From assembly GCA_963822945.1 (NCBI GenBank), contig CAWGJO010000021.1, positions 327,614 to 391,613 on the forward strand: a stretch of DNA of 64,000 nucleotides. Reading direction: 5' to 3'. Source of the DNA: an uncultured Gemmatimonadaceae bacterium. Its GTDB lineage: Bacteria > Gemmatimonadota > Gemmatimonadetes > Gemmatimonadales > Gemmatimonadaceae. The first letter of the stretch is position 1, and the number at the start of each line of letters is the position of its first letter. A program made the position numbers and the translations under genes. Positions 33,171 to 52,762 of the stretch are shown here, in pieces. The notes below the pieces were generated by a model. It saw only the letters and a list, made by a program, of their open reading frames with translations. It had not been told where the DNA came from and ran no database searches.

Positions 33171-34754
33171 CTACGGTTCGTCGCCTTCCAGCAATACGCC
33201 GGAGCTGAGCTCGCTCACCTTGCTGAATCGCTCCACCAGCCGCTTCATGAGAGCCGCTTCATCCGCCACGAAGACGAAGGCCACCGGAGCCGTTGCTCGC
33301 GCCACCACGAAGGCGCCGGGCTTCTTGGCGCGAGCGAGCACCGCGGTCACGGTATCTTCGCCAACCGCAGCACGATACCCCGAAAGGTTTTCGAGATCCG
33401 CCCGCCGGAGCATGATGACCCGCGTCCAGCGCGCTCTACTTTCCAGAATATTGTTGGTCCGGCGCGGAACCACACTGCTCTCGCTGACCGTCATCGGCGA
33501 ATGGGCAATTTCGCCGAGAGCCTCGTAAGCGCTCTCCAAACTGGGCTGGTACAGGCAGACCCAGGGGCGGAGGTACGCGCGCGGCGGCAGCCCGTGAGGG
33601 AAGGACTCGTGCACCAACGCCAGGTAGGTCTGGAACAACTCGTCGCTGAACAGGCCGCCCTCGTTGTCCAGCAGCGCCGGCAGCCGTGGGAGCAACTTGC
33701 GCGCGACGGGATCGATGAATTCGTCGGAGTACAGCCCGTAGGGACGCGCGAGACGGCGCTGAAGCTCTTTGCTATCGAGCTTTTCCAGCACCATGCCGTT
33801 GCCGAAGGCTGCCGCCAGGGATTCGTCGAGCAGACCCCAGGCCGGGTACGCCAGCGGGTCGTCGCTTTCGGCAAAGCGATTGGCGAGACGAGCTGCGTCC
33901 TGCCGTTTGGCGGTGGCGAAGAAGAAGTGAAACAACTCGTGCATCACGACGGCGAGCCGCGGGTCGGCCTTTTCCCCGGGGACGATCTCCACGAACGAAA
34001 CGCGGCCGCGGTTCTGCCCGTAGGACGCCGAATCGTGCTTCGGTCGCGAAAGCAGCTCGAACGTCAGCTCCGTGTGGGGCGGCAAGTCGCTGCCGTAGAA
34101 TGCAGCCACGCGCTCCACCAGCGCGTCGAGTTGGGCGCTGCGGATGCGCTCGGCAAGCTCGCTGGCTTGGGCGGCGAGGGTGGCGTCCTTTTTCTCGTAG
34201 GCCCGCGCGTAGCGTGCGGAAAAGCGCGCGATGATGGCGGCCGACTCGTGCACGTCGGCGGGCTCCATGAACAGTCCGACGGTGCTCGGGTAGCGCTCGG
34301 GCCCGGCGGCGGCATAGGCGGCGAGACGGATGTGGGCTTCTACACCGGTAGCACCGCGGGGGATCGGGAGCTCGGGCTCCTCTACGCCGGACTGAATCTC
34401 TATGCGACCCTGGTAGCGGTAGCGAATGGATCGCCAGCGCGCGATCGCCGCTCGATCAGCCTTGCTCAGCCCGCCCAGCTGCTGCGCCCACTCGAGCTCG
34501 TACGCCGCGACGGAGCAGGGCATCAGGTGCGCGAGGCAGTCGAGCTGATACAGCAGATTCGACCAGCGGGAAGCACGGAAGACGAAGCTCAGACGCTTGC
34601 CATCGACGCGAGCTTCGTGCGCAGGCCCCGCAACCGATGCATCGTTCGGAGCCGTCGACGCGGTCGTCGGGCAGGGTGCCGCTGCCTGCCGCGCCGAGCC
34701 ACTGCAGCCCAACGCCACGAGGGCGACCAAGGAGATTCCGCGACGAACCGACAT
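33171..34754 (-). CDS. Hypothetical lipoprotein with HExxH zinc-peptidase motif
   Basis: Lipobox ALGC; VVMHELFH and downstream LLDESLA (possible gluzincin third ligand). Confidence 0.65.
   Translation of the reverse strand: MSVRRGISLVALVALGCSGSARQAAAPCPTTASTAPNDASVAGPAHEARVDGKRLSFVFRASRWSNLLYQLDCLAHLMPCSVAAYELEWAQQLGGLSKADRAAIARWRSIRYRYQGRIEIQSGVEEPELPIPRGATGVEAHIRLAAYAAAGPERYPSTVGLFMEPADVHESAAIIARFSARYARAYEKKDATLAAQASELAERIRSAQLDALVERVAAFYGSDLPPHTELTFELLSRPKHDSASYGQNRGRVSFVEIVPGEKADPRLAVVMHELFHFFFATAKRQDAARLANRFAESDDPLAYPAWGLLDESLAAAFGNGMVLEKLDSKELQRRLARPYGLYSDEFIDPVARKLLPRLPALLDNEGGLFSDELFQTYLALVHESFPHGLPPRAYLRPWVCLYQPSLESAYEALGEIAHSPMTVSESSVVPRRTNNILESRARWTRVIMLRRADLENLSGYRAAVGEDTVTAVLARAKKPGAFVVARATAPVAFVFVADEAALMKRLVERFSKVSELSSGVLLEGDEP
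33451..33471 (-). repeat. Dispersed ~22-bp repeat, copy D (inside CDS)
   Basis: TTGTTGGTCCGGCGCGGAACC, identical to copy C over 21 nt; read as VPRRTN in the host ORF. Confidence 0.8.
34734..34753 (+). repeat. Dispersed ~22-bp repeat, copy G (overlaps start of CDS 33171..34754)
   Basis: GATTCCGCGACGAACCGACA. Confidence 0.6.
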
Positions 34755-34818
34755 CAGGTCGGGTCACTTTATAGCGAACGCGGCGGCGCGACGAGCCGAG
34801 TGCTATTGTCACCTGACG

Positions 34819-35373
34819 ATGGGCCGGGCAGTACTATGGGTCGCGCTCTCGATCATTCTCTCGGCGAGCAGCGCGCGGGCAGCCGCGGGCGGCAACCAAC
34901 GTGCGAGAGTGTCGGCGCACGGCGCGCAGGCGAAGCGAGCTTCCGCGCCGCACAAGCGAAAGACGGCATCGAAGGCCGCGGCGCGGCGCCCGCACGAGAA
35001 GCAGAGTGCGGCCGCCATGAAGCGTGCCGCCGCCAAGCGACATGCCGCCGCCAAGCGACATGCCGCCGCCAAGCGACATGCCGCCGCCAAGCGACATGCC
35101 GCCGCCATGAAGCGTGCCGCCGCCAAAAAGCGCGCCGCCGCCATGAAGCGTGCAGCCGCCAAGAAGCGTGCCGCCGCCAAGCGACATGCCGCCGCCAAGC
35201 GACATGCAGCCGCCAAGAAGCGTGCAGCCGCCAAGAAACGCGCCGCCGCCAGGGAGCGCGCAGCGGCCAGGCGGCGCGCAGCCGCCAAGAAGCGCGCCGA
35301 CGCTCGGAAGAAGGCGCGCGCGAAAAAACGGAAGGCAAAGAAGGAGCACAATCGGCCGAAGCGCCGGAGCTGA
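34819..35373 (+). CDS. Highly basic Ala/Lys/Arg-rich repeat protein (histone H1-like composition) with signal peptide
   Basis: MGRAVLWVALSIILSASSARA, then (AAAKRH / AAAKKR / AAAMKR)n. Confidence 0.6.
   Translation: MGRAVLWVALSIILSASSARAAAGGNQRARVSAHGAQAKRASAPHKRKTASKAAARRPHEKQSAAAMKRAAAKRHAAAKRHAAAKRHAAAKRHAAAMKRAAAKKRAAAMKRAAAKKRAAAKRHAAAKRHAAAKKRAAAKKRAAARERAAARRRAAAKKRADARKKARAKKRKAKKEHNRPKRRS
35009..35298 (+). repeat. Imperfect 18-nt coding tandem repeat (GCCGCCGCCAAGCGACAT)
   Basis: About 15 consecutive 6-codon units visible in the DNA. Confidence 0.85.
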
Positions 35374-35406
35374 CTCCTCCTGGCAGTCTCGTGCGATAAT
35401 GCCCGC

Positions 35407-35964
35407 ATGCGGGTGAAGGGAACTGCGTATCACGCGCGGCTCAATCTGCTGCGCAGCAAGTGGGGGGAGGAAAAAGTGGAGGCGTTTCTGACGCGGTTCC
35501 ACGAGGAGCACCCGTCGTTTCCCAGGAAGGTGCTGGCCACGACCTGGATGCCAGCAGAGGAATTCCTGCAACTGAACGACGCCATCGTCGACGAGGTCTA
35601 CGGCGGCGATATGGAGTCGCTCTGGGAGCTGGGGGAGGCGAGCGCTGCGTGGACGTTGAAGGACGGCCCCTACAAGAACCTATTGGTGACCAAAGACACA
35701 CGGCGGTTCGCCAGCATGGCACCGGCGATGTACGCCAACTTTTTCGATACCGGCGCAGCCCGCTCGGCGTACTCGGACACCCGCGTGGATCTTTGGATCG
35801 ACGGGATCCCGGAGCCGCTGCGTCACCTGTACTTCGAGTACTCGGTGGTCGGCTATTTCCGACGCGGGCTGGAGCTGCTCGGCGAGGACGTGCGCGCCGA
35901 GTGTGTGGAGGGATTCTCCAAAGGCGACCCGCGGGCGTACTACAAGCTCCACCTCGGCGGGTGA
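35407..35964 (+). CDS. Myxobacterial hypothetical protein (DUF2378/TIGR02265-like)
   Basis: VKG, ATTWMP, ELG...A, YKNLL, FDTG pattern recalled from this family; tentative. Confidence 0.5.
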   Translation: MRVKGTAYHARLNLLRSKWGEEKVEAFLTRFHEEHPSFPRKVLATTWMPAEEFLQLNDAIVDEVYGGDMESLWELGEASAAWTLKDGPYKNLLVTKDTRRFASMAPAMYANFFDTGAARSAYSDTRVDLWIDGIPEPLRHLYFEYSVVGYFRRGLELLGEDVRAECVEGFSKGDPRAYYKLHLGG

Positions 35965-35974
35965 CGAGCGGGGG

Positions 35975-38324
35975 CTATTTCTTTTCGGCCTTCAGACGCG
36001 TCTGGATGGCCGAGGAAGCCTTGCGGAAAGCCGCCGCTTGTTTGGCGCACGGTGGTGGACACGGTGACCGCTTGCGCCGACCGCAACCGCGCTTCGAGCC
36101 GGTCGCCAGCGACAACAAAGCAGCAATCGTGCGGGTATCGCCCTCTTTGGACGCGCGCGCCAAGAGCGGCACCCGCGCCTCGCAGCTGGACGCGGTGCGC
36201 AACTCGTAGGCGATTTTCAGCTCCGGAGTGAAACGCGACTGCACGTCCTTGTCGTCCAGTCGCTCACGGGCCGAGCGCCTCAGGGTCTGGCTCGTGAGCA
36301 TCAAGTCGTAGAGCAGGTCCGGACCCACCTGGCCCATGCGCTGGGCCATCAGATCCAGCGCCTGGATCGACGACTCCGCCGGCCCCAAAGCAATCTTGAC
36401 CACCAACGTGGACAGATCTCGATCGAGTACGCGGCTGGGCGCGACGGTGAACAGATTGCCCAACACCTCGATGGTCTGGGTGTACGTCGCCGGGTCCCGC
36501 CCCAACGCACGGGCCAGCGGCTCGAGCACTGCCGGATCTTTGGGATAGCTCTTGCGCAGCTCCGCCAGAGCAGCGGGCCCCTTGGAAATGGCGTCGGCAA
36601 CCTGGTCGGTAGGTGCGCGCTGAATGATCACGCTGGCAGACGAGGGCGGAGCAACGCTGGCCTCCGGCGCGGCAGAGCCGGTGGCGGGGGCAGCCGGCAG
36701 CTCCGCGCCCGCGCTCGCAGAGGGGGCGGCCGAAGCCGAAGGCTCGGGGGCCAGCACTGGCCGCTGCGAGCGGGCGCGGCCGAAGCCGATCAACACGATC
36801 GCGGCCAAGGTCACGGTCCCGAACACGCCGGGGCCCGCCAGCAGGCGCCGCAGAAACCCGTTGCTGGAACTCGACAGAAGGCGCCTGCGCACGGCCATGC
36901 CCACGGCCGTGATCAGAGCGATGAAGAACAGGATCGGTCCCCAACCGGCCCAACCGGACAGATTGGGCGCCAGCGGAGCCGTGTTCAGGGCACGACCGAA
37001 TCCGTCGAACGCGCGCCCCAGCAGCGTAATGCCGCCGTACACGGCGAGCGCCATGATCAACGGGCCGCGCAGCCTGGGGATCAGCTCCACGATGCGCACG
37101 CTGTTGTTCCACAGCCGGCGACGGATGAAGCGGATGGTGAGCAGCAACGGCGTGATCAGCGTTCCGATCACCACGGCGAGAACCAGGATGAACTCCGTGG
37201 CGGAAAGCTGCCGCCCGCCCCAGAACAGGTCTTGCAGCCCAACGATGGTCGTCACCAGGCCGAGCAGGCCCAAAAGCACGGCCAGCACCAGCAATAGCGC
37301 CAGCTCCACGCGTGCGGTGCTCACGTCGACGTCGTCGGCGCTCGAGCCCACCCGTGACATGAGCGCGCCGCGGGGCGGGCGGGCGCCGGATTCCAAGCGG
37401 CTGTAGCTGTCGAACAGCTCCAGTGCCGCATCCAGCTCCGCCATGAACTGGTAGCGGTCCGACGGCTCCCGGGCCATCGCCCGCTGCACCACCAGCTCCA
37501 GCTCTTCCGGCATGGTGGGCGCGTACTTGCGGGGCCGCTCCGCTTCCGAGCTCATCACGGCCAGCACGGTTTGCTGGGGAGACTCCTCGTTGAACGGGGC
37601 GCGTCCGGTCAGCGCCGTGTACAGAATGGCGCCCACTCCGTAGACATCCACGCGATGGTCAGCGCGTTCCCCCTTCGCCTGCTCCGGCGACATGTAGGCG
37701 GGCGTACCCATCACCAATCCGGTGCGGGTGACCGTGTTCCCCGTCACCTCCGTGAAACGCGACAGCCCGAAGTCCAGGACCTTCGCCTTGGGGCGATCCA
37801 GGGGGCCGACCAGGTAGATGTTCTCGGGCTTGAGAATCCCGGTGGATGACGCCGGCTTCGTGCGCCGCCTCGAGCGCGTGGCACACCTGCCGAGCGATGT
37901 ACACGGCGAGCTCAGGTGACAGTTGCCTCTGCTGCTCGATGAAGTCGCCGAGCTCGAGGCCCTCCAGGTACTGGTTGACGATGTAGGGGCGGCCGTCGGC
38001 CGTGTACCCGAAGTCGTGTACGCCGACCACGTTGGGATGGTCGATGCTGGCAGCGGCGTCGGCCTCGCGCTGGAAGCGAGTGCGCACCTCGGCGCTGGAT
38101 GCCATTTCCGCGCGCAGCACCTTGATGGCGTAGCGCTTGCCGGCGATGCGAGTGTGGTGCGCCTCGAACACCAGACCCATGCCGCCCTCGCCGAGCAGGC
38201 GGTGCAGGATGTAGGTATCCTGCAGTGTCGTGCCAAGCAGACTCGCCGCGGCCTCGTCGCGCTCCACGTCGACGAGTCCAGGGGTGTCCAGCTTGGTAGG
38301 TCTTTCGGGAGAGGAGCTCGCCAT
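35975..38324 (-). CDS. Membrane-associated Hanks-type Ser/Thr protein kinase; frameshift at 37835-37836
   Basis: LGEGGMG.V, AIK, HPNVV, IHRD | LKPEN, DFG, GTPAYMSPE, DVY; one extra base splits HRD from LKPEN; multi-TM C-half. Confidence 0.9.
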
Positions 38325-42101: not shown

Positions 42102-45100
42102 ATGAGCCATCACGCTCGACACAGCCAGGTCGAGGGCGCCGCGCTGCAGGAGGGTTGGGTCATCGCCAACCACATCCTGGTTTCGTTTCACGTCGCCTTC
42201 ATCTCGTCCGTGCTGGCATTGCCGGCCACCTCCATCCTCAAATGGGAGGTACTGAAGTTCGTGTTCGTGAGCCCGGAGACATTGGTTTCCGCCGTGTTCA
42301 TGGGCGTCAGCTTCCATCTGGGGATCGCCCTGCACGAGATGGGGCACTTTCTGACGGCCGCACGCCTCAACGCGCTCAACGACTCCGTGCTGCCCGAGGT
42401 GAAGCAGCGACTCGAGGCTCCGTGGCCGTCACGCTGGCTGTTCTACTTGACGATGATCGCGCGTATCCCGTACGGCGCGGCGCCAGGGGTGAAACGAGAG
42501 GGACTGAACTACTACCCCGACGCCCCCTACAACCTAGCGGTGGCTGCCGCCGGGCCCCGGGCCAGCCGGAACGTGGCCCTGGCCACGCTGCCCATTGCCA
42601 TCGCGCTGTTGGTGCTGGGGCTCTCCTCCGACATCGTGTGGGCCATTTACGCCGGTCGCCTGCTGCTGGGCATTGGTGTGGTCTGCTTCCTGGACTTCCG
42701 CCTGGCCGATCCGGGCAAGTACCGCGCGTTCCGAGAGCGTGAGCTGGCGGCGGCGGACAAGGCCAAAGCCGTAGGAGAGGTCTCCGGTTGGCTGGCCCTC
42801 GCCGCGAAAGCCAAGGCCGCCATGCTGGAAGGACGCATGCAGCGGGCAACCCATCCCGTGCTCGGCAGCGTCACCGCCCCCTGGCAGTTCCGCAACTCCG
42901 GCATGGGCGGACGTCACACAGAAAAGGAATACCCAGAGTCGAACGTCAGCATGCAGGAAGCCATGTTCCTGATCCTGCGTGCCGACGGCTACCGCGAGGC
43001 GCAAGAGCTGACCGTCCGGCTGCAGAACCGACTCAAAGAGATCATCGAAGGAGAAGAGGGTTGCCGCGTGATGGGCATCGGCCTCGAGGGTGGCTTGGCG
43101 CCGTACATCGACAAGGGCGACTTCCCGCTGCCGGAGATGCGGCTGTGGGCAATGATGAAGCGCGCGATCGCGGAGTGCGGTTGCCGTCCCGGGGAGGACG
43201 TCGCGATCGCCCTCGATCCCGCGGCCAGCGAGCTCGAGATCGCGTATCGCGAGGAGAACGCCGTCCCAGACGCCGTGGGCAGCTACCTGTTCTGGCGGGA
43301 CAAAGCCAAGACGGTGCTCGACCGGGACGCTCTGCTGGAAGTGTACGTCACCGCCATCGAAAAGTACGAGATCCCGCTGTTGTCCATCGAGGACGGCTTC
43401 TCGGAGAACGACCACGAAGGCTGGCGATTGCTGAAGGAGCGCCTCGGGGAGCGTCTGTTCATCATCGGTGACGACTTGGTCACCACCAACGACAAGACCA
43501 TCGAGATTGCGGCCGACGCCGGGCTCATCAACTGCGCCCTGATCAAAGCCAATCAGATCGGAACGCTGTACGAGACCTTGCTCGCCATGCTCGTGGCCCT
43601 GGGGAAGAACCTGGAGCTGGTGGTTTCCCACCGCTCCAAGAGCCCCAACGACGACATGGAGGCGCACATCGCGCTGGCGGCAAACGCCCTGGGACTGAAG
43701 GCAGGCGGCGGTTCCAATACCGAGCGCCTGGTGAAATACCAGGCCGTTTCCGAGCGCCTGTTGGCACTGGACGAGGGCGAGCAGCAGGGCGGCTTGGGCG
43801 AAGGCGAGCAGGCGTTGGTGCGGCATCTGCGCGCCTACGAAGAGCCGACCAATGCCGGCATTCCGACCGTGGGCGCCACCGCAGAGCTGACCCTATCCGG
43901 CTCCGGCGTGATGCTGGCTCTGCGCGGCGCCACGCCGCTCGGCACCTCCGCCGGCAGCGGCGAGGCCATCCACCTGGTCGACTCCACCATCGAGCGCGCG
44001 GAGTACCGCGAGGTGATCGAGCGCCATCCCGCTCTGTTCCGCGACGTAGAGCTGGGCGTCCACGCGTTCAAGAAGGACGTCGACGAAGCACGCATTCGCG
44101 CGGAAAACGACCCAGAGCTCCTCGCGCTATTCCAGCGGGCCCGGCGCTACGGCGGGAAGGGCTGCTTGAACGCCGTGGAGAGTGTCACGCACATCGTCGC
44201 CCCCTACTTCCAAGGCAAAGACGCGGCCTCGCTGACGCTTCTGGATCTAGATCGCGCGTTGCTCAAGCTGGAGCTCCAAACCGCGAAACGACGGGGCAAG
44301 CTGGCGGAAGACGCTGACGAAGCGGAGTGCGTCCGCGTGATGCAGCGCAAGCAGAACCTCGGCATGAACGCGATCTTGTCGGTGTCCCTGGCGCTCGGGC
44401 GCGGCATCGCGCGGGTGCACGGCAAAGAGCTGTTCGAGCTGCTTCGCGAAGAAATGATGGCGGTGATAGACCGCGTCGCCGCCAGCCACGACGTGGCCAT
44501 CAGCGGCGGGCGATTCGAGGACTACGTGCGGGCGCTTGCGGAGGTCGCGGGCAAAGCCGAGGTCCCGCTCCACCAGCTGCTGCGCGATGCTTCAGGGCTG
44601 TATGGCGAAGCGCCGAAGGCGGCGGTGCGCCGCGCGCCCAAGGCTCCCAATGTCGAGCAAGAGCCGGAGATCGTCGCCGAAATCGTACCGCCCCACGCTG
44701 CGGCGCAGGAGGTCCTGCGGGCCATCGCCGAGCGGCTCGGCAACGGCTACGAGCACGACGTCCATCATGGCCTCAGGCACGCGCGAGATCTCCTGGCGCG
44801 GGCAGAAGCCTTGGCGACGGAGCTGGACGTGGCAGAGCGCGTGGACTGGCGCGTACTCGCCGCCGCGGTGTCCCTGCACGACGTCGCGGCCGCCGAGACG
44901 ACCAGCCACGGCAAGGCCGGCGCCGAGCGCGCTCGAGAGCTGCTCGGCGAGCTGCCGGGCTTTTCGCACGACGCCGTCGAGCGGGTGGCGGACAGCATCG
45001 TGCTGCACGAAGACAAGAGCCTCACCGGGGTCGACCGGCGCAAGGGCGCCGGTCTCGAGGCGCAGCTGCTGTACGACGCGGACCAGCTCGATGCCTTCGG

Positions 45101-48100
45101 GGAAAAGGGCATCTATCGCTACGTTGCCGTGTACTCCCAACGAAACACTCCGTTGGAGCGCATCGCCGTGGACGCCAGGGCGCGCTACCAGACGCTGTCC
45201 TTCGACGTCACGCGGGCGCACGCCTCGCGCGACTTCGACTTCACCATGAGCTTCGTGGATCGCCTGGCGGAGCAAGCACCGGCGGACGACCGAATGGTCG
45301 GTGCCCACGGCGTGGCGCGCTTCATTCAGAATCACGCCACCGAGGATCCGGTGAACATTGCCGAGCTGGCTCTGGCGGAGCTATCGCGCGCGAAGGACGA
45401 CAGCGCGGACTACCGCTTCGCGGTGGAGTACTTCCGCGCCCTGTACGAGACCTACGCGGGGCGGCCCCCCGCGGCGGAAGAGAGACCTCTGCCCAGCGAC
45501 GAAGACGCCCTGCTCGAACAGCTGGACGCGGAGCTGTTCGCGGCCTTGGTCGGCAAAGACCCGCCGGACATCGCCGGCGCCATTCGCCCCTACCTGGTCG
45601 CCAAAGCTCGGCTCGGCCGCTGGGAGCGCCCCTTCGGCGTGGTGAACAATCGTCTGTTCCTGCAGGGCGACGTGCTGGTCGTTCCCTACGTGCTGGGTCC
45701 GGACATGGTCATCCACGTGCTGGAAGCCGGCACGGCCCGCGCGCCGGTCGTCCATCGCGCTCCGCCCGGCACGATCTTCACTGACGAATACGTTCTGGGG
45801 CTGGCCGGCGCCAGCGGGACGCCCATCGACCTGGAGACGCCGCTTTACGTCTTCGACCCAGACACCACCCCGCTCACTCCCATCACGCGCATTCGGCAGG
45901 CAGCGGATCTCTTGGAACGCGTGAACGAGACGACCAACCGCAATCAGGCGGTGTTCTGGCTCCGCTCGCTGGCGGCGCGCCTGTGCAGCTTGTCCGTCAA
46001 GGACATGCTGGGGGCGAAGAACCTGCAGCCCGAGATTCGCGACTTGTCCGTCCAGCTCACGCGGTTCTTGAACGGCCCGCTGCGCAAGCGGCTGCTGGTT
46101 CTGTCTCGCCTGATCGTCCGAAACCTGACCAGTCTACTGGGCAAGCCCAACGTGATCGATCGGCTGTGGAACGACACCATCGACTTGGCGGAGATCCACA
46201 TCCAAGGCAGCGCCATCGTCAACGAGCTTCGGCGGACCAGCCACCACGCGCTGGGAAAACGCACACTCCAGATCGCCGAAGCGTATCTCGCGTACTTGAA
46301 GAACGGTGAGACCGGCGCGCTGGAGGCGCTTGGCTTCGCGGCGCCGAGCAAGGCCGACGTCGACGCCCGCAAGCAGCCGGAGAACACCGTCATCCTCGAG
46401 CGGGTGATCGAGGACCTTCAGCGGCTCCTGGGGACGTCTCAGATCGTGACGCGCATCGAGGAGTGGAAGGAAACCTACGCGGAGGTGCTCCTGCGCTGCG
46501 AGTTCGGCAAGAGCATCGAGGACGAGCTCGCCACCATCGTGAGCGACGGCATCGGAGAGCGAAACCGCTGGGTGTACCTGCACCATTTGCGCATCCTCCG
46601 CGACAAGGTCGACAGCTTCCGCCAGCCGGCGGACATGGGGTCGGAGCTTCGAGCGCAGCTCGACGAGGCGGTCAAGGAGAAACCGGACGCCAAGAGCTTC
46701 GACCCCGGGCCCGTGACCCGCGCCTTGGAACAGAGCGTGCGCGGCTTCGTAGCGGAGCTGCGTCATGCCCATGAGGAGCCGCTGTTCGAGGCGCTAGGCA
46801 GCGTGATCGAGAGCTATCGATCCGGGCGGAACTACGAGGTGTTCGACAAAACGCGGGCGCTGCGCGGCCGCGTGGTCGCCATGATCGAAAACGCAGGCTT
46901 CGACGAGCAGCGGGACTACCTGTGCCGCCTCGAAGGGTTGCTCGAAGAGATGGGCTACCTGGCGCTTCGGCACGTGGCTTCGCGCTACCAAGAGAAGGGC
47001 GTAGACCTGGCCGAGTGCCTGCAGATCGTTCGCTCCTGCACCTTGAACCTTCGCTACGACGGGCTGTTCAGCCGAGAGCTGATCGACTTCGCCGAGATGC
47101 TGACGGACTCGACCCGCACGGACGACGAGCTCCTGAACGTGCTGGAGAACATCGAGCGCGTCTACCACCGCGTTCGCCAACGCGTCACCGTGCCGTACGA
47201 GAAGATGCAACAGCGCTTGGGCTTGGACGACCACGAGCTGCGCCTGATTCTGGCGAACATGCTGCGCTACATGCACGACTTGAACAGCATGGTTCACTTC
47301 GCAGACATTGCCGCGACGACCATCCGGGAACAGCAGGCCAAGGGCAAGGTGTTATTCGGCCGGGAGCACGAGCTCGCGTTGGCGGACGTGGACGACCCGG
47401 TGCTGCACATCTCCCACCGGAGTGAAATCGCCCGTTGGATCGAGCAGCGCGACAAGAGCCTCAGGGATCGCTACGGCGCCAAGGGCAGCGGCTTGCTCTA
47501 CATCAGCTATCTGAACCTGCCCACGCGCGACGGGTTCATCCTACCCACCACCTACGGACGCGCCGCGCTGCATCGCGCGGCTCCTGCTCGACTCCGGGGG
47601 GAGCTCGAAGATCACTTGCGCACGTTGGAACGCGACATCGCCCAACGCACGGGCGTGGAGAAGCGGTTCGGTGGCGGGGAAAACCCCCTGGTGTTGGCCG
47701 TGCGCGGCGGCTCGGTGTTCAGCATGCCCGGCATTCTCTACACCGTGGTGTTCGTGGGCATGAACGACGAGATCGCAGAGCGCCTGGCTCAGGACGGCCC
47801 CTGGCGCGCCTACGACTCCTACCGCCGTTTCCTCGCCTCCTACGCGACAGCGGTGTGGAACGTGGATCTGGAGCAGTACGACTTGGTCGACAAGGCAAAG
47901 CAGCGCCACGGTGTCCGCTACAAGCAGGAGCTTCCGTGGCAGGCCATGAAAGAGGTCGCCGAAGAGTCGAAGCAGGTGCTGCGGGAGCTGGGCCTGGGCA
48001 AAGAGCTGGATGCCATCTTGGCGGATCCGTTCAGCCAGCTCGTGGGCGCGGTCAATGCGGTGTTCGACTCCTGGGAGACGGACACCGCGGCGCGTTTCCG

Positions 48101-48968
48101 AGACATCAAGGGCATCTGCCACAGCTGGCATACCGCGGTGAGCGTGCAAGAGATGGCCTTCGGCAACCGCACCAATGCCAGCGTGGAGCCGGGGCTGGAC
48201 GAGACCAAGGCGTCGCTCACGGGCGTCATCCCACGCACGTTCCCGACGGACGCGGGCGTGCGAGCATTCGAAGGCGAGATCAAGTTCTCGGCTGCAGGCG
48301 ACGACCTCGTCAGCGGCATGACCTACTCCGATTCCTTCCGGTCCATCGGCGAGCTGGACCAGCTGATGCCGACGCTGGAAACCCGGCTCAAGCACGCCGT
48401 CGCCAAGCTGCGGCGCTTCATGGGCACGGATCAAGAGGTGGAGTTCACGGTGGAGCGTGGCGTGCTCTCCGTGCTGCAAACGCGACGCGCCGAAGCCCGC
48501 CGAGATCAGGCAACGGACCGCTTCTTGGACCCAGGGGATCCCGCCACTCGCGGCTTGGGCGTTCGGGGCGGAGGCTTCCGCGGCATGGTGGCCTTCGACG
48601 ACGCCGACCTAAGCGAGCTATCGGCGGTGGATTTGACCGAGCGGGACGACGTCGACGGCGTACTCTTGGTGATCGAGAACCCCACACCGGCGGACATCCC
48701 GATGATCATCTCCGCGGACGGTCTGCTGACGGCCCGCGGAGGCTCCACCTCGCACGCTGCGGTCGCCATCAACGGTATCGAGAATCGAGACTACTCCGGC
48801 GTCGTGAGCGCCATGAACCTGGACGTGGACGTCGACCGCCACGAAGCAATCATCCGGGGAGATTCGGGTGAGGTGCTGTACCGATTGAAGACGGGCGACG
48901 TGGTCAGCATCCACGGCACCACGGGAGACGTCTACATCGGCTCCCGCCGCATTCAACGCACCAACTGA
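42102..48968 (+). CDS. 2288-aa fusion: HExxH membrane domain, circularly permuted enolase, HD domain, unknown region, PPDK-like ATP-grasp and phospho-His domains
   Basis: HEMGH/AAAGP; enolase C-domain motifs GGRH, QE, EGG, LDPAASE, SIEDG, GDDL, LIK.NQIG, SHRS; then enolase N-domain motifs PTV, GTSAG.GEA, GKG, LGMNAILSVSLA; H...HD...DAD.LD; GAKG, VR.G...SMPG, YRRF, VQ.M.FGN, G.D.VSG, QEVEFT.E, LQTR, GGSTSHAAV; GGAGG RBS. Confidence 0.88.
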   Translation: MSHHARHSQVEGAALQEGWVIANHILVSFHVAFISSVLALPATSILKWEVLKFVFVSPETLVSAVFMGVSFHLGIALHEMGHFLTAARLNALNDSVLPEVKQRLEAPWPSRWLFYLTMIARIPYGAAPGVKREGLNYYPDAPYNLAVAAAGPRASRNVALATLPIAIALLVLGLSSDIVWAIYAGRLLLGIGVVCFLDFRLADPGKYRAFRERELAAADKAKAVGEVSGWLALAAKAKAAMLEGRMQRATHPVLGSVTAPWQFRNSGMGGRHTEKEYPESNVSMQEAMFLILRADGYREAQELTVRLQNRLKEIIEGEEGCRVMGIGLEGGLAPYIDKGDFPLPEMRLWAMMKRAIAECGCRPGEDVAIALDPAASELEIAYREENAVPDAVGSYLFWRDKAKTVLDRDALLEVYVTAIEKYEIPLLSIEDGFSENDHEGWRLLKERLGERLFIIGDDLVTTNDKTIEIAADAGLINCALIKANQIGTLYETLLAMLVALGKNLELVVSHRSKSPNDDMEAHIALAANALGLKAGGGSNTERLVKYQAVSERLLALDEGEQQGGLGEGEQALVRHLRAYEEPTNAGIPTVGATAELTLSGSGVMLALRGATPLGTSAGSGEAIHLVDSTIERAEYREVIERHPALFRDVELGVHAFKKDVDEARIRAENDPELLALFQRARRYGGKGCLNAVESVTHIVAPYFQGKDAASLTLLDLDRALLKLELQTAKRRGKLAEDADEAECVRVMQRKQNLGMNAILSVSLALGRGIARVHGKELFELLREEMMAVIDRVAASHDVAISGGRFEDYVRALAEVAGKAEVPLHQLLRDASGLYGEAPKAAVRRAPKAPNVEQEPEIVAEIVPPHAAAQEVLRAIAERLGNGYEHDVHHGLRHARDLLARAEALATELDVAERVDWRVLAAAVSLHDVAAAETTSHGKAGAERARELLGELPGFSHDAVERVADSIVLHEDKSLTGVDRRKGAGLEAQLLYDADQLDAFGEKGIYRYVAVYSQRNTPLERIAVDARARYQTLSFDVTRAHASRDFDFTMSFVDRLAEQAPADDRMVGAHGVARFIQNHATEDPVNIAELALAELSRAKDDSADYRFAVEYFRALYETYAGRPPAAEERPLPSDEDALLEQLDAELFAALVGKDPPDIAGAIRPYLVAKARLGRWERPFGVVNNRLFLQGDVLVVPYVLGPDMVIHVLEAGTARAPVVHRAPPGTIFTDEYVLGLAGASGTPIDLETPLYVFDPDTTPLTPITRIRQAADLLERVNETTNRNQAVFWLRSLAARLCSLSVKDMLGAKNLQPEIRDLSVQLTRFLNGPLRKRLLVLSRLIVRNLTSLLGKPNVIDRLWNDTIDLAEIHIQGSAIVNELRRTSHHALGKRTLQIAEAYLAYLKNGETGALEALGFAAPSKADVDARKQPENTVILERVIEDLQRLLGTSQIVTRIEEWKETYAEVLLRCEFGKSIEDELATIVSDGIGERNRWVYLHHLRILRDKVDSFRQPADMGSELRAQLDEAVKEKPDAKSFDPGPVTRALEQSVRGFVAELRHAHEEPLFEALGSVIESYRSGRNYEVFDKTRALRGRVVAMIENAGFDEQRDYLCRLEGLLEEMGYLALRHVASRYQEKGVDLAECLQIVRSCTLNLRYDGLFSRELIDFAEMLTDSTRTDDELLNVLENIERVYHRVRQRVTVPYEKMQQRLGLDDHELRLILANMLRYMHDLNSMVHFADIAATTIREQQAKGKVLFGREHELALADVDDPVLHISHRSEIARWIEQRDKSLRDRYGAKGSGLLYISYLNLPTRDGFILPTTYGRAALHRAAPARLRGELEDHLRTLERDIAQRTGVEKRFGGGENPLVLAVRGGSVFSMPGILYTVVFVGMNDEIAERLAQDGPWRAYDSYRRFLASYATAVWNVDLEQYDLVDKAKQRHGVRYKQELPWQAMKEVAEESKQVLRELGLGKELDAILADPFSQLVGAVNAVFDSWETDTAARFRDIKGICHSWHTAVSVQEMAFGNRTNASVEPGLDETKASLTGVIPRTFPTDAGVRAFEGEIKFSAAGDDLVSGMTYSDSFRSIGELDQLMPTLETRLKHAVAKLRRFMGTDQEVEFTVERGVLSVLQTRRAEARRDQATDRFLDPGDPATRGLGVRGGGFRGMVAFDDADLSELSAVDLTERDDVDGVLLVIENPTPADIPMIISADGLLTARGGSTSHAAVAINGIENRDYSGVVSAMNLDVDVDRHEAIIRGDSGEVLYRLKTGDVVSIHGTTGDVYIGSRRIQRTN

Positions 48969-51512: not shown

Positions 51513-51607
51513 CGCGGGCGAAGCTAGCGCGAATGCGCGAGAGCGTCATGTCGGGACGGCCTCAGCCGTTGCCGTGCCGCGAAAGCCGTGGCATCCACGA
51601 AAGTCTG

Positions 51608-52171
51608 ATGGGGTCTTTGGAAGTGGATCTGACGAGCTTCGGGGCGGACCAGCTCCGGACCGCCGTACAAACGGCCCTGGAGGGGGCTGGCGGCGGTTCC
51701 CTACCCTCTGTCGACCGGCTGCGTGAAGGCGCCAGTGCCACCCTCGAGAGTCGCGACGCCGAAGTATCCACCTACTTCACGTCGATGCTCGAGATTGGCT
51801 ACCTGATCGCCTCGGCGGACGGGTTTGCCGAAGAGGAGCGCCACGCGCTGGCCAACCTGCTGGAGCAGGTGACGGGCAAGACGGTGGGTCACGACGTGCT
51901 GGAGCTCCACTTCCGCGATCTGGACGACGCGGTGGAGATGCTCGGCCGGCGGGAACGGCTGCGGCGCGCCGCCGAGGATTTCGTGGGGGGCATGGGTGAA
52001 GAAGAAGCGTTGGGCTTCGCGGCCGTGGTCGCCATCGCGGATGGCAAGCTGGCCGAACCGGAGGCGAACGCTCTGCTGGAGCTCGGGGGGCATTTTGGAT
52101 TGACCCCGGAGCGAGTCGCTCAGGTGATCGATGGCATCGTGGCGCGCCTCAAGGCGCAGCTCGAAAACTGA
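51608..52171 (+). CDS. TerB-family protein
   Basis: LIASADG..EEE and VAIADGKLAEPE..L..L...FGL motifs. Confidence 0.8.
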   Translation: MGSLEVDLTSFGADQLRTAVQTALEGAGGGSLPSVDRLREGASATLESRDAEVSTYFTSMLEIGYLIASADGFAEEERHALANLLEQVTGKTVGHDVLELHFRDLDDAVEMLGRRERLRRAAEDFVGGMGEEEALGFAAVVAIADGKLAEPEANALLELGGHFGLTPERVAQVIDGIVARLKAQLEN

Positions 52172-52180
52172 GGCGCGAGG

Positions 52181-52762
52181 ATGAGCTTCATCAATCACAT
52201 GTCCAAAGAGATCAACTGCAAGGTCGTGTATTACGGCCCCGGTCTCTGCGGCAAGACCACGAATTTGCAGTACCTGTTCGAGAAGACGAGCCCAAACGCC
52301 AAGGGCAAGATGATCTCGCTCGCGACGGAAACCGAGCGGACGTTGTTCTTCGACTTCATGCCCATCGACTTGGGCACCGTGAAGGGCTTCAAGATCCGAC
52401 TGCACCTGTACACGGTGCCCGGCCAGGTGTTTTACGACGCGAGTCGCAAGCTGATCTTGAAGGGCGCGGACGGCGTGGTGTTCGTGGCGGACTCCCAGAT
52501 GGAACGGCTGGAAGCCAACCAGGAGAGCGTGGACAACCTGCGCGCCAACCTGATCGAGCACGGCATGAATCTGAGCCAGATTCCCTATGTCGTTCAGTAC
52601 AACAAGCGCGACCTGCCGAATCCGCTGGACGTGGCGGAGCTTCGGGCCGCGGTCAATCCGACGGGGGCGCCGGATTTCGAAGCCAGTGCGCGCACCGGCC
52701 AGGGCGTGTTCGAAACCCTCAAGGGTGTTTCGCGCGGCGTGCTGCAAAAGCTCACGCGCTAG
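52181..52762 (+). CDS. mglA: MglA-family small GTPase
   Basis: MSFIN...[50 protein letters not shown]. Confidence 0.92.

Follow-up and report, generated by a model that had tools for sequence, protein, structure and literature searches.

Background

Enolase is a near-universal enzyme, and the order of its domains, in which the capping domain precedes the barrel, is treated as fixed. The canonical protein (EC 4.2.1.11; TIGR01060; e.g. E. coli Eno and B. subtilis 4a3r) carries no fused membrane domain, and pyruvate phosphate dikinase (PPDK; TIGR01828; 1kbl, 9pzl) is built from an ATP-grasp domain, a phospho-histidine swivel domain and a barrel for phosphoenolpyruvate (PEP) and pyruvate. Here we report that parts of both meet in one gene, located in a stretch of 64,000 nucleotides (hereafter the window) from an assembly assigned to an uncultured Gemmatimonadaceae bacterium (GCA_963822945.1, contig CAWGJO010000021.1, positions 327,614 to 391,613 of the forward strand). 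The gene encodes a membrane protein, P0001, in which the enolase is circularly permuted, and sequence comparisons support a natural permutant with the full set of catalytic residues. The permuted-enolase family is real, conserved and apparently undescribed; our literature search, with most subscription journals and the supplements of two Omnitrophota preprints outside its scope, found no description of such a family or of a natural enolase permutant.

Compared with canonical enolase, P0001 has both domains, 33-37% identity to E. coli Eno, 12 active-site residues and the barrel fold, whereas it differs in domain order, in the fused membrane domain, in having two insertions, in reading SHRSKSPND and TNAG in place of SHRSGETED and DSRG, and in being accessory to a canonical copy. 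As in PPDK, an ATP-grasp and a swivel domain are present together with the nucleotide-site residues and the phospho-His; unlike PPDK, P0001 is without the PEP/pyruvate barrel, has a helical domain of ~480 residues in front, and scores 249 bits against a cut-off of 843 bits. An ATP-grasp and a His domain without the pyruvate barrel are also found in VadK (Rv1127c), which the accessible part of PMC13400623 describes as a 50-kDa stand-alone protein acting on methylcitrate-cycle enzymes, whereas the module in P0001 is fused to helical, enolase and membrane domains. Rifampin phosphotransferase and related swivel dikinases likewise combine an ATP-grasp domain with a His swivel at the C-terminus and a separate non-barrel domain (PMC4844700, available sections), but the ATP-grasp domain of P0001 is of the PPDK type and not of the PEP-synthase type. 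Finally, Omnitrophota giant proteins are large membrane proteins that string together sugar-metabolism domains (bioRxiv 2023.11.21.568195, in part), unlike P0001, the architecture of which is fixed and compact across many phyla; the accessible main text of that preprint has 0 occurrences of enolase, and the accessible part of a 2026 Omnitrophota preprint has one, as a KEGG hit.

Results

Domain order and active-site residues of the permuted enolase

A sequence-only reading of the window had assigned a circularly permuted enolase to positions 42876..44445. This interval is not a gene; it corresponds to residues ~259-781 inside a single open reading frame (ORF) with an ATG start, 42102-48968 (+), the 2,288 codons of which encode the whole of P0001. 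A permuted enolase is indeed present, but the assignment was incomplete in that it represents only one domain of a membrane-anchored multidomain protein. The motifs listed in that reading all lie in a single frame and in the order claimed, and the barrel-first arrangement is borne out by the Pfam hidden Markov models, which place Enolase_C (residues 269-548, E 6.7e-45) before Enolase_N (residues 586-725, E 1.3e-9), i.e. the reverse of the normal order. Scanned alone, Enolase_N scored 49.8 bits (cut-off 35 bits). The two insertions, predicted to be ~50 and ~20 residues long, were found to comprise ~50 and ~23 residues.

Each half was aligned to E. coli Eno (taken from the annotated genome and numbered with Met1 counted), resulting in 33% identity over 291 columns for the barrel and 37% over 145 columns for the capping domain. 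All 12 catalytic residues checked have a counterpart, as had been proposed (P0001 = E. coli): S616=S42, H272=H159, E286=E168, E329=E209, D372=D246, E430=E290, D457=D317, K482=K342, H510=H370, R511=R371, S512=S372 and K533=K393. Their roles are in part covered by the accessible sections of PMC8495383. Searching with the enolase region, we retrieved 325 proteins 1,258-4,004 residues in length, 120 of which were listed, and P0001 was aligned with 115 of these (116 rows; four tandem-repeat proteins were excluded). The 12 residues are invariant in 116/116 rows; since the aligned rows are the closest matches this overstates the conservation in the wider family, and in the distant relatives P0163 and P0170 several catalytic residues are lost. 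For those of the 12 residues with roles beyond the cited ones we presume the usual assignments (Lys base, Glu acid, metal ligands, His-Arg-Ser, lid Ser). Given this invariance the permuted enolase is predicted to be probably active or ligand-binding.

Invariant departures from canonical enolase are Ala in place of R16, Lys-Ser in place of G373-E374, and the two insertions; the new invariant Lys, K513, adjoins the phosphate-binding Arg-Ser. The SHRSKS motif is encoded at 43626-43643 and the codon of the lid Ser616 is 43947-43949. Among proteins of the permuted family, many of which are fragments, 158 of 169 have Lys-Ser after the His-Arg-Ser motif, whereas Gly-Glu occupies these positions in 42 of 53 canonical enolases, and by these counts SHRSKS is a signature of the permuted family. 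Over its whole length P0001 scores 206-212.5 bits with TIGR01060, under the 300-bit cut-off; a linear model cannot score the permuted order in full. The domain appears enolase-like by every sequence test, failing on domain order.

A predicted model of residues 1-838 has a mean predicted local distance difference test score (pLDDT) of 76.8 and a predicted template modelling score (pTM) of 0.68; confidence is low for the loops bearing His272 and Ser616 and for the linker. The modelled barrel aligns to enolase 9no2 with a Z score of 23.5 and a root-mean-square deviation (rmsd) of 2.8 over 271 residues. As to docking of the capping domain, the best structural alignment took in the barrel only, and the lid loop has a pLDDT <50.

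Conservation of the reversed order and its origin

The barrel precedes the capping domain in 120/120 homologues among the matches listed, and 115 of them show the domain order of P0001. In a scan of species genomes we identified 76 loci, all in metagenome-assembled genomes (MAGs), from Acidobacteria, Myxococcales, Planctomycetota, Aminicenantes, Gemmatimonadota, Gammaproteobacteria and others; all parts are in one ORF at 50 loci and within the locus at 55; apart from one clean two-gene split (L008), the remaining loci are truncated by a contig end or carry frameshifts. Because the reversed order recurs in the homologues, and does so within a single frame in genomes from many phyla, misassembly of the gene is ruled out and the sequence-only reading was right to see a natural permutant. 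Moreover, the barrel end and the linker (43620-43827) are spanned without a gap by a contig from an independent run, which differs at 20 letters. The sequencing runs listed included four of DNA, with small shares, and none of RNA.

The junction from ERLxKY to E-x-x-TNAG is 33 residues long in 112 of the 117 proteins having both patterns (120 examined). Joining E. coli Eno directly tail to head would give 36 residues, and so the junction length fits an origin by tandem duplication followed by trimming. One 888-residue protein, P0177, carries a decayed barrel ahead of an intact canonical enolase, a tandem of the type that could give rise to a permutant. A quickly built tree comprised 93 barrels, 44 of them canonical and 49 permuted (midpoint root; no short barrels and only 13 of the close fusion proteins; the long row P0262 uncertain). 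All permuted barrels fall on one side of a branch having a Shimodaira-Hasegawa-like approximate likelihood ratio test value of 99, and the permuted barrels may therefore have a single origin.

Architecture of P0001

The order of the domains is: an M50-like membrane domain, the permuted enolase, an optional HD domain, a helical domain, the PPDK-type ATP-grasp domain and the phospho-His swivel domain (Table 1). Scans for promoters and terminators gave no signal above shuffles.

Table 1 Features of the P0001 gene (positions in the window)
Feature	Position	Strand	Basis
Whole gene, 2,288-residue multidomain protein P0001	42102..48968	+	Single ORF, ATG start
M50/site-2-protease-like membrane domain, ~4 hydrophobic helices	42156..42719	+	Sub-cut-off Pfam match, conservation, model, hydropathy
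Enolase barrel, normally C-terminal	42867..43766	+	Pfam Enolase_C, residue map to E. coli Eno, model alignment
New linker, canonical C-terminal helix to canonical N-terminus	43767..43811	+	Conserved length; low model confidence
Enolase capping domain, normally N-terminal, with lid Ser616 and two insertions	43812..44456	+	Pfam Enolase_N, alignment, S616 in 116/116
Optional HD-type phosphohydrolase domain, YedJ/PRK10119-like	44751..45281	+	Sub-cut-off NCBIfam and Pfam matches; 22/116 homologues
Small beta-containing region and large helical domain of no recognised fold	45429..47351	+	Model, conservation
PPDK-type ATP-grasp domain	47439..48506	+	Pfam PPDK_N, phmmer, conserved residues
Phospho-histidine swivel domain, His2218 at 48753-48755	48522..48965	+	Pfam PEP-utilizers; stop codon next

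The third-ligand motif of canonical site-2 proteases is of the NxxPxxxxDG type. Residues 19-206 of P0001 share with the M50 site-2 proteases (RseP, SpoIVFB, M. jannaschii S2P) an HExxH motif (HEMGH at 42333-42347) in a predicted membrane helix (residues 58-88 of the model), an AAAGP segment and downstream Asp residues. The fold match is weak: the model aligns to RseP with Z 8.4 and rmsd 5.3 over 126 residues, and to M. jannaschii S2P with Z 7.9 and rmsd 6.0 over 118. H78, E79 and H82 are conserved in 113/113 rows, and two Asp, D198 and D203, in 114/114 rows with a residue; the latter are part of LDFxxADxG, our candidate for the third-ligand motif. Differences are that the third-ligand loop is shorter and without what we take to be the usual Asn-Pro pattern, that the cytosolic partner is an enolase and not a CBS or PDZ domain, and that no substrate gene was found. 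The membrane domain lies directly upstream of 40/40 permuted barrels preceded by at least 120 residues, ending at most 70 residues from the barrel, and we therefore consider the membrane domain and the permuted enolase to be the core unit.

The HD domain matched NCBIfam PRK10119 (E 6.4e-5) and Pfam HD (E 7e-4), both below cut-off, and its H889, H926, H936, H969 and D994 are present in 22/22 HD-bearing homologues. The helical region (residues 1110-1750) was confidently modelled, with a mean pLDDT of 87.8 for residues 1091-1773, and has R1377, R1378, H1382, R1588, E1615, E1616, R1722 and D1726 as invariant residues; its NELRRxxHHA motif is at 46221-46250. Foldseek gave no match to this fold at E 0.001 or better, VIA gave no clear match (best Z 10.9, ~100 residues of generic bundles) and a search of the ESM Atlas no usable one. 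HPt bundles with Z 8.0-8.4 overlap the conserved H1494-H1495; these values are within chance for helical bundles, and we assign no HPt role to the domain. There was no RIF-binding domain among the matches listed, where the 683-residue model can miss single domains.

The C-terminus matches Pfam PPDK_N and PEP-utilizers, and PPDK structures by phmmer (E 1e-51). Conserved are K1794 (114/114), R1868 (115/115), E2114 (112/112), Q2126 (112/113), R2128 (113/113) and H2218 (112/113); the counterparts of K22, R92, R135, Q240, G254, D280, E323, Q335, R337 and H455 of solved PPDK are conserved, whereas at D321 the homologues mostly have Glu and at E279 mostly Asp. The mapped residues presumably have their nucleotide-site and phospho-His roles. 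The PEP/pyruvate barrel (PF02896) gave no match in P0001, which stops after the swivel domain, and judging from the domains present the PPDK part can only perform the nucleotide half of the PPDK reaction. P0001 also matches PRK05878 (E 2.8e-52, 178 bits) below the cut-off of 456 bits; we take VadK to be a member of this family. A complex prediction for the enolase part and the swivel domain scored 0.00, which is not evidence either way.

Housekeeping enzymes and neighbouring genes in carrier genomes

We searched 50 of the 76 carrier genomes, picked for longer contigs and spread. Full-length canonical Enolase_N and PGK were both present in 50/50, and PPDK was over cut-off in 41, with three more holding PPDK in pieces. 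Replacement of the housekeeping enolase, PPDK or PGK is therefore ruled out for these carriers; the permuted-enolase protein is accessory, not housekeeping, and since the carriers already have these enzymes it is more likely to be a regulator. Among the neighbours of the gene at the 76 loci none proved conserved; the largest real cluster of neighbouring genes comprises 11 loci, mostly from related Gammaproteobacteria.

Relatives with other architectures

The C-terminal helical-PPDK half also exists as a stand-alone protein of ~1,180 residues (32 complete-looking proteins among 69 matches), and at two such loci the flanking sequence retrieved contains no gene for enolase. Fusions of enolase with barrel-less PPDK come in two arrangements, P0160 having the barrel-less PPDK in front; this protein has no detectable helical domain. 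In the giant relative P0155 the permuted enolase is fused to a complete PPDK. The module is held by three giants of 2,278-6,041 residues (P0155, P0133 and P0138), one with HD and complete PPDK and one with a weak GPI cupin match.

In a clade of stand-alone membrane-enolases, a gene for a multi-PAS HisKA_3 histidine kinase lies directly upstream in 4/9 loci (L093, L095, L096 and L098); the four are close kin and hence not independent. P0003, P0004, P0005 and P0006 carry two tandem membrane-enolase units, the enolase copies being 100% identical in three and 88% in P0006; the identical copies represent either a recent duplication or an assembly repeat. Among the distant relatives P0178, P0180, P0206, P0163 and P0170 the permuted enolase is doubled or decayed, and most keep HExxH.

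Furthermore, we noted a second barrel-less PPDK family of ~1,400 residues with a conserved helical N-terminal part (L091:5695-10021; L102-L131), occurring in 38 of the 151 genomes sampled from one phylum. It adjoins a divergent GAPDH in 11/30 loci (1.5-kb flanks) and shares only a weak motif with the helical domain of P0001 (BLAST E 7e-4, hhalign probability 2.6%).

Origin of the window DNA

The whole window lies in a 248-kb part of its contig (C21, ~144,000-391,613) that has a foreign composition. Specifically, held-out 5-kb segments past ~144 kb score +0.8 to +2.2 compared to -2.24 (sd 0.59) elsewhere, where 3 of 693 are above 0, and long matches to genomes of the same genus end at ~143.9 kb. 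The foreign part has a second secA with 65% identity to a Myxococcales MAG versus 60-61% to same-genus genomes, and distant duplicates of genes that we read as pilM, ruvC and mglA, the last presumed from Arf/Ras matches only. MglA is 72 and 70% identical in two myxobacterial MAGs, 40% in a third, and, over a shorter span, 67-68% in two genomes of the same genus; its identity separates the lineages poorly. Close named homologues of P0001 are found in a Polyangiaceae MAG and a Myxococcales MAG, and the permuted enolase was absent from all 60 relatives of the bin that were searched, 16 of which belong to the same genus and one of which is unpublished. It is likely that C21 is a chimeric join to myxobacterial DNA; alternatively, it may represent a very large transfer. 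The contamination figure of 0.79% misses this probable chimera.

As to the suggestion to look for a separate canonical eno, the bin has one on another contig (C4:2391-3640), frameshifted near C4:3011, likely a read error given the many frameshifts of the bin. This answer is confounded: with the window on foreign DNA, the C4 gene likely belongs to another organism, and we rejected it as unsafe to use as the canonical copy of the window organism. The bin also has a PEP synthase and no second PPDK_N match.

Elsewhere in the window, a low-complexity repeat at 34597-35408 gives ORFs rich in Ala, Lys and Arg on either strand (AAAKRH-type units) and may specify a histone-like protein. A gene at 35975-38324 (-), which from its motifs we take to be Ser/Thr kinase-like, runs in two overlapping frames and is probably frameshifted; a TerB-like gene followed by one for an MglA-like small GTPase is located at 51533-52762 (+).

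Discussion

With a probability of roughly 0.4 we favour that P0001 is a membrane-anchored sensor-regulator of the carbon and energy state, responding to PEP and 2-phosphoglycerate, with a VadK-like autophosphorylating kinase and a site-2-protease-like output, and not a glycolytic enolase. In such a protein the enolase domain, with Mg, would bind 2-phosphoglycerate and PEP and convert one into the other. Its state of occupancy would govern the attached site-2-protease-like domain, which would cleave a target tethered to the membrane. ATP would serve the ATP-grasp domain as phosphate donor for His2218, in the manner of the barrel-less PPDK VadK; the swivel domain would then hand the phosphate on, either to an acceptor at the helical domain or to a partner protein, providing a second input or a second output. 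Where present, the HD domain would take phosphate off a related signal.

We count in favour of a sensor the membrane domain upstream of all 40 barrels, the housekeeping enzymes of the carriers, the kinase genes upstream in four of nine loci, the HExxH kept in P0163 and P0170 despite decayed enolase residues, and the two fusion orders of enolase and barrel-less PPDK (P0001 and P0160). A precedent is VadK, a barrel-less PPDK which according to the accessible part of PMC13400623 autophosphorylates on His and regulates metabolic enzymes. Site-2 proteases with C-terminal cytosolic ligand-type (CBS) domains constitute a large known group, with the role of that domain described as unsettled in the available part of PMC11486902.

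Several observations weigh against a sensor of this kind. The same part of PMC11486902 reports that SpoIVFB's CBS domain is not needed for cleavage, which makes the analogy loose. Over the 115 homologues the barrel is the best conserved part (mean identity 81% versus 67% for the membrane domain), and this fits catalysis as well as sensing. Moreover, stand-alone helical-PPDK proteins exist, so that half can work apart and looks enzyme-like. Peptidase_M50 was matched at E 0.0014 with 18.4 bits, the best relative reaching 25.4 (cut-off 27.2), the third-ligand motif is altered, and Z scores near 8 are within the chance range for helical bundles; phmmer with the membrane domain against PDB gave 0 matches at E 10, hence no solved S2P. 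P0154 keeps SHRSKS but shows no HExxH match. Finally, across the 76 loci neither a target gene nor a regulator was conserved next to the gene.

A signalling system of an undescribed kind, in which a permuted active enolase would read PEP and 2-phosphoglycerate and gate an intramembrane protease, and a PPDK-derived histidine kinase with a helical acceptor of new fold would read ATP, AMP and pyrophosphate (PPi), is a proposal that we regard as rather unlikely.

A close rival, doubtful though still quite possible, is an enzyme assembly: the helical domain would be a new acceptor-binding domain, as in rifampin phosphotransferase, the dikinase half would move phosphate between ATP (to AMP and PPi) and a small anionic metabolite made or used by the tethered enolase, and the membrane domain would only anchor or process the protein. 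The invariant residues of the helical domain resemble an active site, P0155 fuses the permuted enolase to a complete PPDK, and the second barrel-less PPDK family, with its weak helical motif in common, adjoins a GAPDH. PPDK-type kinases also swap acceptor domains (PMC4844700, in part), and giant proteins with glycolytic and PPDK domains occur in Omnitrophota (accessible text of bioRxiv 2023.11.21.568195). However, an assembly of this kind leaves the invariant HExxH and Asp residues unexplained, the carriers already own enolase, PPDK and PGK, and in P0160 enolase is coupled to barrel-less PPDK with no helical domain detectable.

It is improbable that the domain binds a phosphorylated acid without turnover of 2-phosphoglycerate, or uses another substrate. 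The invariant departures from canonical enolase, the decayed relatives and the low confidence of the active-site loops in the model are in line with this, but the K482 base, the E329 acid, E286, H272 and all metal ligands are invariant in 116/116 rows, and a pure binder is disfavoured because such a domain would be expected to lose some catalytic residues.

Yet more remote is that the enolase replaces the missing barrel, so that the phospho-His would dock on the enolase site, a single site would convert pyruvate to PEP and 2-phosphoglycerate (or the reverse), and the capping domain, freed by the permutation, would admit the swivel domain. A PEP-binding barrel is repeatedly fused to a PPDK without exactly that part, and K513 is placed beside the phosphate-binding Arg-Ser. 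The lid Ser and the capping domain of enolase bury the phosphate, and both are fully kept; this, the occurrence of stand-alone helical-PPDK proteins as well as stand-alone membrane-enolases, and P0155, which holds a PPDK barrel together with the permuted enolase, all argue against it.

That the reversed order is an assembly or sequencing artefact has practically no chance of being correct: the contig is probably chimeric and frameshifts are numerous in the bin, but the suspected join at ~144 kb of C21 is ~225 kb away from the gene, the order is the same in all 120 listed homologues, the parts share one ORF in 50/76 loci, and the independent contig crosses the barrel end and the linker free of gaps.

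Conclusions

The permutant is strongly conserved across many uncultured phyla, and its soluble part of 530 residues is amenable to expression and assay. The permutant also marks a wide family of barrel-less PPDK proteins. Databases list these under 'enolase' or 'PEP/pyruvate-binding domain protein', and pathway reconstructions can be inflated as a result. If P0001 is an enzyme assembly, its helical domain would represent a new phosphoryl-acceptor fold. If it is a sensor, a central metabolite would be tied to intramembrane proteolysis, and if it is part of a signalling system as outlined above, glycolytic flux would be wired directly to regulated intramembrane proteolysis.

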